Assembly (NCBI RefSeq): GCF_058153355.1
Contig: NZ_CM177019.1
Length of the DNA stretch: 64,000 nt
Direction: 5' to 3' (one strand)
Positions 40,569 through 46,100 of this stretch are shown here, in pieces. The notes beneath the pieces are model-generated. The model saw nothing but the letters and a program-made list of their open reading frames with translations. It was not told the origin of the DNA and searched no databases. Position 1 is the stretch's first letter. Each line of letters starts with the position of its first letter. The translations under genes were made by a program, and so were the position numbers.

Positions 40569-41342
40569 TTAACAATTTCTGGTCGTGCATAAAATCAGGA
40601 ACTGGAGTGGTGACGTTACTATATCCAGCGTAAGAGTGACTGGTAGCAGTGCATTAGCGAGGCCGCGCGGAACGCCATCAGTTGCTTTGTACTTATAAAA
40701 TCCCACCGTAAAGGGTTGATGGAAAACCATCACGTTTGAGTAATCCGCTTTTTTATTTTTCTGGTGGATAGAGCCTTTCAGGCCGTCAAGTGCCCAGGTA
40801 CAACGCTGGGTATTACAAATAAAACCATATTGTGTCGCCAGTGCTTTATCTTCCTCATTATCCCAGTCGTAATAGAGCGTTATTGAACCAGAAAAATTAG
40901 TATCACTGCTGCTTAAAATAAATTTCGCGTTATCGGAAACGGTGATTCTTTCGCCATGAATTGCCGGATCGTTCAGCATTTTAACCACCTCGCCGCCGCC
41001 CGTGGTCAACAGATAGTCCAACGATTCACCAACAAAAACATAGCCTTTCGTACCGTTACTATCCTCTGCCAGCGATAACCCCTTAATCGAGTCTGACCGC
41101 CATTGCTCGGCATGTGGAGGACTTGCGGTATTGGAAACCAACCCCCAAGTGAGACAACCGGTCAACGCAAATGCCAAAGAACACAAACCGGCAGCCTTAA
41201 AAAATCCCTTAAAATTCAACTTTATGACTAATCCTTTAAACGAGTAGCTAAGCCGTTGAAAGCATACTCTTCTTTCCCTCCTGTTTAGCGCCTGATATCC
41301 CTTTTCAGATTTCTGCCCGACGCATGTCATTTTTTTATGCAT
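40569..41342 (-). CDS. yidX: Putative lipoprotein
   Basis: Lipobox [11 protein letters not shown]-track N-terminus probably over-extended, true start uncertain (about 41220-41330). Confidence 0.7.
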
Positions 41343-41359
41343 TGTTCTTTTTGTGATCT

Positions 41360-41440
41360 AAATTGTAGTACAACAATATAACTTTGTACTACATTACGCA
41401 TACAGCAAACGCGAACGTCATCACGCTGGTACTACAAAAT
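41360..41440. promoter_or_regulatory. Candidate DgoR operator repeats in dgo promoter (three TTGTAnTACAA-like sites)
   Basis: aattgtagtacaa, tttgtactaca, tggtactacaa directly upstream of dgoR. Confidence 0.5.
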
Positions 41441-41502
41441 TGCCGCGTTATGCATCGATCGGGGTAAAGTAGAGAAGTACATACAGAGCACAAGGACTCT
41501 CC

Positions 41503-42192
41503 ATGACTCTCAATAAAACCGATCGCATCGTCATTACGCTGGGCAAACAGATCGTTCACGGCAAATACGTGCCAGGCTCGCCGCTTCCGGCCGAGGCGGA
41601 ACTTTGTGAGGAGTTTGCAACCTCGCGCAACATCATCCGTGAGGTGTTTCGTTCGCTGATGGCGAAGCGGCTGATTGAAATGAAACGTTATCGCGGGGCG
41701 TTTGTGGCACCGCGTAATCAGTGGAATTACCTCGATACTGACGTGCTGCAATGGGTGCTGGAAAACGACTACGACCCACGGCTTATCAGTGCAATGAGCG
41801 AAGTGCGAAATCTGGTGGAACCGGCGATTGCCCGTTGGGCGGCAGAGCGCGCGACTTCCAGCGATCTGGCGCAGATTGAATCAGCGCTGAACGAGATGAT
41901 CGCCAACAATCAGGACCGCGAAGCGTTTAACGAAGCGGATATTCGCTATCACGAGGCGGTACTGCAATCAGTGCATAACCCGGTGTTACAGCAACTTAGC
42001 ATTGCGATTAGTTCATTACAGCGGGCGGTTTTTGAACGAACCTGGATGGGCGATGAGGCCAACATGCCGCAAACGCTCCAGGAACATAAGGCGCTGTTTG
42101 ATGCGATACGGCATCAGGACGGCGATGCGGCAGAGCAGGCGGCGCTTACCATGATCGCCAGCTCGACACGAAGGTTAAAGGAAATCACATGA
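41503..42192 (+). CDS. dgoR: GntR/FadR-family repressor of D-galactonate operon
   Basis: 229 aa, N-terminal wHTH, operon context. Confidence 0.9.
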   Translation: MTLNKTDRIVITLGKQIVHGKYVPGSPLPAEAELCEEFATSRNIIREVFRSLMAKRLIEMKRYRGAFVAPRNQWNYLDTDVLQWVLENDYDPRLISAMSEVRNLVEPAIARWAAERATSSDLAQIESALNEMIANNQDREAFNEADIRYHEAVLQSVHNPVLQQLSIAISSLQRAVFERTWMGDEANMPQTLQEHKALFDAIRHQDGDAAEQAALTMIASSTRRLKEIT

Positions 42193-43067
42193 CAGCTCGC
42201 TACATCGCAATTGACTGGGGATCGACCAATCTGCGCGCCTGGCTTTATCAGGGCGACCACTGCCTGGACAGCAGGCAATCAGAAGCAGGCGTTACGCGTC
42301 TGAACGGAAAATCTCCGGCTGCGGTGTTAGCAGAAGTGACGACCGACTGGTGTGAAGAGAATACGCCAGTGGTGATGGCAGGAATGGTTGGCAGCAATGT
42401 CGGCTGGAAAGTTGCGCCGTATTTATCTGTTCCTGCCCGTTTTTCGTCTATTGGCGAACAATTAACGTCTGTTGGCGACAATATCTGGATTATTCCCGGA
42501 TTATGCGTTTCTCATGATGATAACCACAATGTGATGCGCGGCGAAGAAACACAATTGATCGGCGCGCGTGCTTTGGCTCCTTCCTCTCTTTATGTCATGC
42601 CCGGTACGCATTGCAAATGGGTGCAGGCCGATAGCCAGCAAATCAACGATTTTCGCACCGTGATGACCGGTGAATTACATCATTTACTGTTAAATCATTC
42701 ATTGATTGGCGCAGGTTTACCACCGCAGGAAAACTCTGCCGATGCCTTCGCGGCTGGCCTTGAGCGTGGTCTCAATGCGCCCGCCATATTGCCGCAGCTT
42801 TTTGAAGTTCGTGCCTCGCATGTGCTGGGAACACTTCCCCGTGAACAGGTCAGCGAATTTCTCTCTGGTTTGTTGATTGGCGCAGAGGTCGCCAGTATGC
42901 GCGACTACGTGGTCCATCAACACGCCATCACCCTTGTCGCCGGAACATCGCTGACTGCACGCTACCAGCAAGCCTTTCAGGCGATGGGTTGCGACGTGAC
43001 GGCGGTGGCGGGCGACACGGCATTTCAGGCTGGTATAAGGAGCATCGCTCATGCAGTGGCAAACTAA
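42189..43067 (+). CDS. dgoK: 2-dehydro-3-deoxygalactonokinase
   Basis: 292 aa, overlaps dgoR stop. Confidence 0.9.
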   Translation: MTARYIAIDWGSTNLRAWLYQGDHCLDSRQSEAGVTRLNGKSPAAVLAEVTTDWCEENTPVVMAGMVGSNVGWKVAPYLSVPARFSSIGEQLTSVGDNIWIIPGLCVSHDDNHNVMRGEETQLIGARALAPSSLYVMPGTHCKWVQADSQQINDFRTVMTGELHHLLLNHSLIGAGLPPQENSADAFAAGLERGLNAPAILPQLFEVRASHVLGTLPREQVSEFLSGLLIGAEVASMRDYVVHQHAITLVAGTSLTARYQQAFQAMGCDVTAVAGDTAFQAGIRSIAHAVAN

Positions 43068-43668
43068 ACTCCCGCTGATCGCCATTTTGCGCGGTATTAC
43101 GCCCGACGAGGCGCTGGCGCATGTTGGCGCGGTGATTGACGCTGGGTTCGACGCGGTTGAAATCCCTCTGAATTCCCCACAATGGGAACAAAGCATTCCC
43201 GCCATCGTTGATGCGTATGGCGACAAGGCGTTGATTGGCGCAGGTACGGTACTGAAACCTGAACAGGTCGATGCGCTCGCCAGGATGGGCTGTCAGCTCA
43301 TCGTTACGCCCAATATCCATAGTGAAGTGATCCGCCGCGCGGTGGGCTATGGCATGACCGTTTGCCCCGGCTGCGCGACGGCGACAGAAGCCTTTACCGC
43401 GATCGACGCGGGCGCTCAGGCGCTGAAAATATTCCCGTCATCGGCTTTTGGGCCGCAATACATCAAAGCGTTAAAAGCGGTATTACCGCAGGACATCCCG
43501 GTCTTTGCCGTAGGCGGTGTGACGCCAGAAAACCTGGCGCAGTGGATAGACGCAGGTTGTGCAGGGGCGGGCTTAGGCAGCGATCTCTATCGCGCCGGGC
43601 AGTCCGTAGAACGCACCGCGCAGCAGGCAGCAGCATTTGTTAAGGCGTATCGAGAGGCAGTGCAATGA
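43051..43668 (+). CDS. dgoA: 2-dehydro-3-deoxy-6-phosphogalactonate aldolase
   Basis: 205 aa KDPG-aldolase-like. Confidence 0.9.
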
Positions 43669-44702
43669 AAATCACCAACATTACTACGTATCGTTTACCT
43701 CCCCGCTGGATGTTCCTGAAAATTGAAACTGATGAAGGCGTGGTCGGTTGGGGCGAGCCCGTGATCGAAGGCCGCGCTCGTACGGTGGAAGCGGCAGTTC
43801 ACGAGCTGAGTGACTATTTGATTGGTCAGGATCCATCGCGCATCAATGACTTATGGCAAGTGATGTATCGCGCCGGATTTTATCGTGGCGGTCCGATTCT
43901 GATGAGCGCCATCGCCGGGATCGACCAGGCGTTATGGGATATCAAAGGTAAAGTGCTGAATGCGCCGGTCTGGCAACTGATGGGCGGCCTGGTTCGCGAC
44001 AAAATTAAAGCCTACAGTTGGGTCGGCGGCGATCGTCCGGCGGATGTTATCGACGGCATTAAAACGCTACGCGAAATCGGCTTCGATACCTTCAAACTGA
44101 ACGGTTGTGAAGAACTGGGATTGATTGATAACTCCCGCGCGGTAGATGCGGCGGTCAACACCGTGGCACAAATTCGTGAAGCTTTTGGCAATCAGATTGA
44201 GTTTGGTCTTGATTTCCACGGTCGCGTCAGCGCGCCGATGGCGAAAGTGCTGATTAAAGAACTGGAACCGTATCGCCCTCTGTTTATTGAAGAGCCGGTG
44301 CTGGCGGAACAAGCCGAATACTACCCGAAACTGGCAGCACAAACTCACATCCCACTGGCGGCGGGTGAGCGCATGTTCTCACGTTTCGATTTTAAACGTG
44401 TGCTGGAAGCTGGCGGTATTTCGATTCTGCAACCCGATCTTTCTCACGCAGGTGGTATTACCGAATGCTACAAAATTGCCGGAATGGCGGAAGCCTATGA
44501 CGTGACCCTTGCGCCGCACTGTCCGCTCGGCCCGATTGCACTGGCGGCTTGCCTGCATATCGACTTTGTTTCCTATAACGCGGTACTTCAGGAACAAAGT
44601 ATGGGCATTCATTACAACAAAGGCGCGGAGTTACTCGACTTTGTGAAAAATAAAGAAGACTTCAGCATGGTCGGTAATGCCGATCAGTTAAGGATCAGTT
44701 GA
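43665..44702 (+). pseudogene. dgoD: D-galactonate dehydratase, 3'-truncated by IS4 (last 9 codons read into the IS)
   Basis: Enolase-superfamily protein [31 protein letters not shown]...; ORF is 345 aa versus the ~382 aa I recall; reading frame crosses IS4 end at 44675. Confidence 0.8.
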
Positions 44703-46100
44703 CCGATCCAGTGGCTGTGTAAGAATCCGGAAACGCTCACTTGTTTCCGGATTTTTTTATGCACATTGGACAGGCTCTTGATCTGGTATCCCGTTACGAT
44801 TCTCTGCGTAACCCACTGACTTCTCTGGGGGATTACCTCGACCCCGAACTCATCTCTCGTTGCCTTGCCGAATCAGGTACTGTAACGCTACGCAAGCGCC
44901 GTCTTCCCCTCGAAATGATGGTCTGGTGTATTGTTGGCATGGCGCTTGAGCGTAAAGAACCTCTTCACCAGATTGTGAATCGCCTGGACATCATGCTGCC
45001 GGGCAATCGCCCCTTCGTTGCCCCCAGTGCCGTTATTCAGGCCCGCCAGCGCCTGGGAAGTGAGGCTGTCCGCCGCGTGTTCACGAAAACAGCGCAGCTC
45101 TGGCATAACGCCACGCCGCATCCGCACTGGTGCGGCCTGACCCTGCTGGCCATCGATGGTGTGTTCTGGCGCACACCGGATACACCAGAGAACGATGCAG
45201 CCTTCCCCCGCCAGACACATGCCGGGAACCCGGCGCTCTACCCGCAGGTCAAAATGGTCTGCCAGATGGAACTGACCAGCCATCTGCTGACGGCTGCAGC
45301 CTTCGGCACGATGAAGAACAGCGAAAATGAGCTTGCTGAGCAACTTATAGAACAAACCGGCGATAACACTCTGACGTTAATGGATAAAGGTTATTACTCA
45401 CTGGGACTGTTAAATGCCTGGAGCCTGGCGGGAGAACACCGCCACTGGATGATACCTCTCAGAAAGGGAGCGCAATATGAAGAGATCAGAAAACTGGGTA
45501 AAGGCGATCATCTGGTGAAGCTGAAAACCAGCCCGCAGGCACGAAAAAAGTGGCCGGGACTGGGAAATGAAGTGACAGCCCGCCTGCTGACCGTGACGCG
45601 CAAAGGAAAAGTCTGCCATCTGCTGACGTCGATGACGGACGCCATGCGCTTCCCCGGAGGAGAAATGGCGGATCTGTACAGTCATCGCTGGGAAATCGAA
45701 CTGGGATACAGGGAGATAAAACAGACGATGCAACTGAGCAGGCTGACGCTGAGAAGTAAAAAGCCGGAGCTTGTGGAGCAAGAGCTGTGGGGTGTCTTAC
45801 TGGCTTATAATCTGGTGAGATATCAGATGATTAAAATGGCGGAACATCTGAAAGGTTACTGGCCGAATCAACTGAGTTTCTCAGAATCATGCGGAATGGT
45901 GATGAGAATGCTGATGACATTGCAGGGCGCTTCACCGGGACGTATACCGGAGCTGATGCGCGATCTTGCAAGTATGGGACAACTTGTGAAATTACCGACA
46001 AGAAGGGAAAGGGCCTTCCCGAGAGTGGTAAAGGAGAGGCCCTGGAAATACCCCACAGCCCCGAAAAAGAGCCAGTCAGTTGCTTAACTGACTGGCATTA
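44675..46100 (+). mobile_element. IS4 insertion sequence, copy 2 (1426 bp), no target-site duplication
   Basis: Identical to 21-1446 in opposite orientation; flanks tcagcatggtcgg / gaccgatttggcc do not match. Confidence 0.85.
44759..46087 (+). CDS. insG: IS4 transposase
   Basis: Same protein as copy 1. Confidence 0.85.

Follow-up and report, generated by a model that had tools for sequence, protein, structure and literature searches.

Three palindromes lie upstream of dgoR in the DNA analysed here, a stretch of 64,000 nt from contig NZ_CM177019.1 of assembly GCF_058153355.1 (hereafter the window; coordinates count from its first letter). They raise the question of whether all three are operators of the repressor encoded beside them, or only the two that have been studied experimentally in E. 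coli K-12, and what their presence means in a genome in which the operon is broken further downstream. The model that we consider very probable is that DgoR acts on the three palindromes to repress the dgo promoter and is released by D-galactonate, the third palindrome being an auxiliary site.

The dgoR upstream region and its three palindromes

The regulator gene, dgoR (41503-42192, plus strand), is an intact open reading frame of 229 aa encoding a repressor of the GntR/FadR family, with the GntR winged helix-turn-helix and FCD domains recognized by Pfam. The protein is identical to E. coli K-12 DgoR at 229 of 229 residues. A DgoR-type regulator is thus encoded directly beside the sites, and dgoK, dgoA and a truncated dgoD come after it.

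Inspection of the sequence places the three 11-bp palindromes between 41363 and 41437, 75 bp from end to end (no strand is assigned to any of them). Operator 1 (41363-41373; TTGTAGTACAA), which corresponds to the published IR1, is a perfect palindrome with a central G. Operator 2 (41384-41394; TTGTACTACAT) corresponds to the published IR2 and the third, DgoR-type site (41427-41437; TGGTACTACAA) is predicted by comparative genomics; compared with the specific DgoR consensus TTGTA-S-TACAA, operator 1 has no mismatch and the other two have one each. All three also fit the FadR-subfamily operator pattern TKGT-N3-ACMA, with TKGT and ACMA boxes and 3 nt between GT and AC. The first-pass annotation had therefore been right to describe three TTGTAnTACAA-like repeats 5' of dgoR and to assign them the half-site pattern of FadR-subfamily GntR regulators. 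Its placement of the repeats within 80 bp upstream of the gene holds for their span but not for their nearness to the start: the operator centres are 135, 114 and 71 bp 5' of the dgoR ATG (41503), and the outer limits of the array are 140 and 66 bp from it.

Such a grouping is far from the background of the window. Allowing at most one mismatch, TTGTASTACAA matches four times in the 64 kb (0.82 expected), a count reached by none of 100 shuffles, and three of the four matches fall in the same 75 bp, 41363-41437. At the window rate, finding three matches in 75 bp would have a probability on the order of 1e-10 for each position window. For the 7-bp core GTASTAC, the window holds eight occurrences where 3.0 are expected, three of these being in the operator stretch. 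The fourth 11-mer match (ATGTAGTACAA, 30274-30284, one mismatch) and a GTAGTAC core at 30195-30201 were considered as a possible second pair of operators, and both were rejected as chance occurrences, because each sits within the yidC coding sequence at Tyr-Tyr codons, read on the minus strand.

A scan of 41200-41600 for sigma-70 promoters and terminators returned no consensus match, as expected for a weak activator-dependent promoter; since a generic scan is uninformative for a weak CRP-dependent promoter, we took the promoter positions from the literature. In K-12, a class II CRP site with TGTGA is reported at -160 to -140 from the ATG, and the wild-type -10 hexamer is TACATT, a non-optimal sequence within -120 to -100 (PMC6003448). 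The window has TGTGA at 41352-41356, or -151 to -147, inside the reported CRP interval, and the site as a whole (TGTGA-N6-TTGTA, 41352-41367, plus strand) shares its right half with operator 1. The TACATT hexamer at 41390-41395 (plus strand), placed from PMC6003448 together with the sequence, is the -10 element of the upstream, D-galactonate-inducible and CRP-activated promoter. The start site of this promoter can be placed near 41401, from the CRP centre at 41359.5 plus 41.5 bp and from the position of the -10 hexamer. Operator 1 therefore lies over the -35 region of the upstream promoter as well as the right CRP half-site, while operator 2 overlaps TACATT.

The same study describes a second RNA polymerase site, at -70 to -30 counted from the dgoR ATG (PMC6003448). 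The third palindrome, at -76 to -66, touches the upstream edge of this downstream site, and lies at about +27 to +37 relative to the inferred upstream start. Between the third palindrome and the Shine-Dalgarno sequence there is a conserved block, GGTAAAGTAG (41463-41472, plus strand), which probably represents the -10 region (TAAAGT) of the downstream polymerase site. Pairing this TAAAGT with TTGCCG as a -35 element leaves a 19-bp spacer and is not convincing.

Two further elements lie next to the operators. A GATC at 41355-41358, within the CRP site and adjoining operator 1, has its A at -147 and is invariant in the 70-sequence alignment described below; in Salmonella, the GATC at -147 of dgoR is hemimethylated (undermethylated) and has been tied to bistable, Dam-dependent expression (PMC7708049). 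Immediately 5' of the third palindrome is CGCGA-N6-TCACG (41410-41425), which is loosely CRP-like. Its TCACG half is invariant in seven close relatives and reaches a conservation of only 0.6-0.8 across 70 species.

Correspondence to the operators described in E. coli

The three palindromes are already on record, the first two as experimentally validated operators and the third as a published prediction. DgoR dimers repress the dgo operon through two closely spaced inverted repeats that lie over the D-galactonate-inducible promoter, IR1 being perfect and IR2 containing one mismatch, and D-galactonate frees the repressor (PMC11705089, PMC12288454, PMC7674646). Each monomer of the dimer takes one half-site (PMC11705089). 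Sort-Seq of the K-12 dgo promoter located a repressor site between -140 and -110, counted from the dgoR ATG (Belliveau et al. 2018, PMC6003448), an interval that maps to 41363-41393 of the window and covers operators 1 and 2. In the same study, DNA-affinity chromatography with mass spectrometry on a -145 to -110 fragment gave DgoR as the most strongly enriched protein, and the repression signal was gone in a dgoR deletion strain (PMC6003448).

The first two sites of the window have the same sequence as K-12 IR1 and IR2 and are placed as they are there with respect to the CRP site, the -10 hexamer and the ATG (PMC11705089, PMC12288454, PMC6003448). Motif comparison with the reported operators, proposed in the first-pass annotation as a check, gave an exact match of 41358-41379 to the published 22-mer IR1 oligonucleotide, CTAAATTGTAGTACAACAATAT, a one-mismatch copy corresponding to IR2, and all three sites in a published list (see below). 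By alignment, the core 11-mers of all three sites are identical to those of E. coli K-12 MG1655; the published experimental model for that promoter is without the third site. Outside the cores, the site neighbourhoods depart from K-12 at three bases, one ahead of site 2 (G to C), one following site 2 (A to G) and one following site 3 (G to A). Because DgoR and the sites are identical, the K-12 repression data carry over directly to the window. Direct, D-galactonate-sensitive binding of DgoR has been published for the IR1 and IR2 region of K-12 (PMC11705089, PMC6003448, PMC7674646).

The third site is included in the comparative study of Suvorova, Korostelev and Gelfand 2015 (RegPrecise data, PMC4494728 file S1), which lists CTAAATTGTAGTACAACAATA, TAAGTTTGTACTACATTACAC and CACGCTGGTACTACAAAGTTG as the DgoR sites of E. 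coli b4479. These are the three sites of the window, CACGCTGGTACTACAAAGTTG being the third. Three-site arrays are listed there also for E. fergusonii, Enterobacter sp. 638, Cronobacter, Klebsiella, S. flexneri, Salmonella and Serratia (PMC4494728). Site 1 of the listed S. flexneri array is mutated (TTGTAGCGCAA), whereas it is intact in the window. The same work gives a FadR-subfamily consensus with TKGT/ACMA boxes and, for DgoR, 3 nt between GT and AC (PMC4494728). Operators of the FadR subfamily in general (consensus NyGTM-N0-1-KACNy) likewise have GT and AC 3 nt apart, AT-rich arms and one half-site per monomer; the TTGTA/TACAA arms and the arrangement of three phased sites are particular to DgoR.

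Reg-Seq did not recover the DgoR "right site", and no information on the operator sites of DgoR is given in the P22 Pid/dgo paper or in the RegulonDB v12 paper. For the IR1 and IR2 operators of the dgoRKADT promoter in E. coli K-12, the primary paper is Singh et al. 2019 (J Bacteriol 201:e00281-18), as cited in PMC11705089 and PMC12288454. The experimental papers covered here (PMC11705089, PMC12288454, PMC7674646, PMC6003448) yielded no binding or mutational evidence concerning the third site. Accordingly, the reading of the repeats as autoregulatory operators of DgoR is established for sites 1 and 2, as IR1 and IR2, and stands for site 3 as a prediction from comparative genomics.

Conservation and probable role of the third site

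To what extent the array is shared can be seen in a survey of dgoR loci sampled at one genome per species (80 loci, 79 with upstream sequence). The chain of three sites was found in 76 of the 79 enterobacterial loci, in agreement with the published list and contrary to the idea that the motif might be missing from the dgo promoters of related species. In all 76 the centres of sites 1 and 2 are 21 bp apart; those of sites 2 and 3 are separated by 43 bp in 69 loci, 42 bp in six and 44 bp in one. The survey thus widens the three-site pattern to 76 species and adds the fixed spacing to the published listing. Site 1 is a perfect palindrome in 73 of the 76 loci, and sites 2 and 3 are perfect in none. 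A description of this conserved sub-optimality, one perfect and two imperfect sites, was not found in the literature searched. The central bases of sites 1, 2 and 3 are G, C and C in 68 of 76 loci, which orients site 1 opposite to the other two.

When 70 distinct upstream regions are aligned, column conservation, taken as the average share of the commonest base, is 0.99 for site 1, 0.95 for site 2 and 0.92 for site 3. It drops to 0.59 in the spacer between sites 1 and 2, to 0.53 in that between sites 2 and 3, and to 0.53 upstream of the CRP site. Other conserved blocks in these regions are the CRP-like TTTTTGTGATCTAAA at the CRP site (0.89), GGTAAAGTAG (0.94) and the Shine-Dalgarno region. Within site 3, positions 3-5 (G, T, A) and 9-11 (C, A, A) have frequencies of 0.99-1.00, and the forms that the site takes among genera (TTGTACTGCAA, TTGTACTTCAA, TAGTACTACAA and TGGTACTACAA) each retain the palindrome, with one or two mismatches. 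A pair of DgoR half-sites would be expected to show this pattern, and an unrelated element would not.

Several other explanations of the repeats can be weighed against this background. A chance cluster of AT-rich intergenic palindromes, with no regulatory role, is suggested by the short length of the motif and by nothing else; it has practically no probability and is excluded by the match count (4 where 0.82 are expected, three of these within 75 bp), by strong conservation at fixed positions across genera whose spacers have diverged, and by the K-12 experiments that support a function (PMC11705089, PMC6003448). As the transcript from the inferred upstream start runs through site 3, the conserved sequence of this site might instead work as RNA structure in the roughly 100-nt dgoR leader and not as a DNA operator. 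We find this exceedingly improbable: the leader folds at -22.1 kcal/mol (z = -0.34), no better than shuffled sequence, the sole Rfam match with E below 1 is to an implausible lncRNA family and scores far below the gathering threshold, and an 11-nt palindrome with a 1-nt centre cannot make a hairpin by itself. Binding by a different FadR-subfamily protein that recognises a similar GT-N3-AC motif, in place of DgoR or besides it, would draw on the fact that TKGT/ACMA boxes are common to the motifs of the subfamily (PMC4494728). It is nevertheless very improbable, given that DgoR was the top-enriched protein on the -145 to -110 DNA and that repression was lost on deletion of dgoR (PMC6003448), and that the motif always accompanies dgoR, both in our survey and in the comparative study (PMC4494728).

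The only live alternative, which we judge unlikely, is that just sites 1 and 2 are DgoR operators and that site 3, without meaningful binding of DgoR in vivo, is kept on other grounds, for instance because it forms an upstream or -35 element of the downstream promoter or binds another factor. The published experimental models name two repeats only (PMC11705089, PMC12288454, PMC7674646), and the repressor signal in Sort-Seq was reported at -140 to -110 only (PMC6003448). The site adjoins the polymerase site at -70 to -30 and is a perfect palindrome in none of the 76 loci, and its flanks, TCACG on the 5' side and AAA-TG on the 3' side, are also conserved, hinting at an additional or different constraint. 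However, the invariant positions 3-5 and 9-11 are those of the DgoR motif, the changes between genera preserve the palindrome within one or two mismatches, the distance to site 2 is held at 42-44 bp, and an independent comparative study assigned the site to DgoR (PMC4494728). On balance we lean, with some reserve, towards site 3 being a real auxiliary DgoR operator omitted from the two-repeat experimental model, although its conservation could be due in part to the overlapping downstream promoter.

With all three palindromes taken as DgoR operators, the array would work as follows. In the absence of D-galactonate, the three palindromes would each be bound by a single DgoR dimer, whose monomers contact one TTGTA half-site apiece. 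With sites 1 and 2 filled, RNA polymerase and CRP are kept off the inducible promoter, because site 1 lies over the -35 region and the right CRP half-site and site 2 over TACATT, and dgoR itself is repressed together with the catabolic genes. Binding of D-galactonate to the FCD domain then releases the repressor. For sites 1 and 2, these steps have been demonstrated in E. coli K-12, which has the same DgoR protein and core sites. Site 3 may serve as an auxiliary operator, either repressing the downstream promoter or cooperating with sites 1 and 2 to stabilise repression, or both; the distances of 21 bp and 43 bp, about two and about four helical turns, would align the three sites along the same face of the helix.

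Multi-operator repression with auxiliary sites is familiar from O1 and O2 of LldR and from O1, O2 and O3 of the lac system. The DgoR array resembles these in having one strong site and weaker, helically phased ones, with one weaker site downstream of the start. It differs in that DgoR is described as dimers (PMC11705089) and is not known to form tetramers or to loop DNA. If the third site is an operator, dgo would be repressed through three operators whose hierarchy, one perfect site and two imperfect ones, is conserved, and site 3 might silence a downstream promoter of the constitutive type or cooperate with IR1 and IR2 on the same helix face. The modest wider interest of the array lies in this site, whose position and imperfection are strongly conserved across Enterobacteriaceae, yet which is outside the models of the experimental papers covered. 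Otherwise, the finding matters little beyond correct annotation, in that it marks the well-studied DgoR- and CRP-controlled dgo promoter.

The broken operon and its lineage

Downstream of dgoR, comparison of the open reading frames with K-12 and E. coli 2013C-4282 identified dgoK (2-dehydro-3-deoxygalactonokinase; 42189-43067, plus strand, 292 aa) and dgoA (aldolase; 43051-43668, plus strand, 205 aa) as full length, with dgoK as long as in both strains. The next gene, dgoD (43665-44674, plus strand), is truncated after codon 337 of 382, at the point where homology to the intact operon ends. Its open reading frame of 345 aa reads through eight codons encoded by an IS4 element to a stop at 44702, and its enolase-type domains are cut at the C terminus (Pfam). 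The IS4 element itself (1426 bp; 44675-46100, plus strand) was recognized by its terminal repeats and by a transposase with Nterm_IS4 and DDE_Tnp_1 domains. Aligned to the unbroken operon of E. coli 2013C-4282, the sequence is 99.0% identical from gyrB as far as 44674, where the alignment ends, and the 3' end of dgoD, dgoT, cbrA and yidR have no match anywhere in the 64-kb window.

The gene that follows IS4, on the minus strand, is presumably glgP, as named from the layout and translation of its open reading frame. Because this gene follows the element, IS4 at 44675-46100 sits at a rearrangement junction. On the K-12 map, dgoD and glgP are about 0.3 Mb apart. A second IS4 copy, 100% identical and inverted, is found at 21-1447, about 43 kb from the first. 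The genes between the two copies include, besides yidC, gyrB and dgoRKA, those that we take, from the layout and translations of the open reading frames, to be pst, tnaA, mnmE, dnaA, dnaN and recF. Together, the inverted pair and the joint between dgoD and glgP indicate an IS4-associated rearrangement.

At this locus the galactonate pathway does not function, since the 3' end of dgoD has been removed and dgoT separated by IS4. The array would still control dgoR, dgoK, dgoA and the truncated dgoD. The first-pass annotation had remarked that the repeats remain intact although the operon is disrupted downstream, and this is borne out: the three sites are unaltered and IS4 cuts dgoD at 44674. The promoter region (181 bp) shows 100% identity to its counterpart in E. 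coli 2013C-4282, a strain with an intact operon. Since the operators, the promoter, dgoR, dgoK and dgoA are all intact, the disruption by IS4 is probably recent, as judged from the sequence. The intact operators carry little meaning beyond this; they point only to a recent disruption and do not suggest selection to keep them. The genome would therefore represent early decay of the pathway, with a complete regulatory region and repressor gene before an operon recently broken by IS4, as is typical of IS-rich Escherichia/Shigella lineages.

The segment 36543-44674 has 99-99.8% identity to only a handful of complete E. coli genomes, 2013C-4282 among them, while identity to most other E. coli genomes is 95-99% in gyrB and 90-95% across yidX-dgoD. 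Taken with the IS4 junctions, this pattern of identity suggests that the window comes from a minor Escherichia/Shigella lineage.
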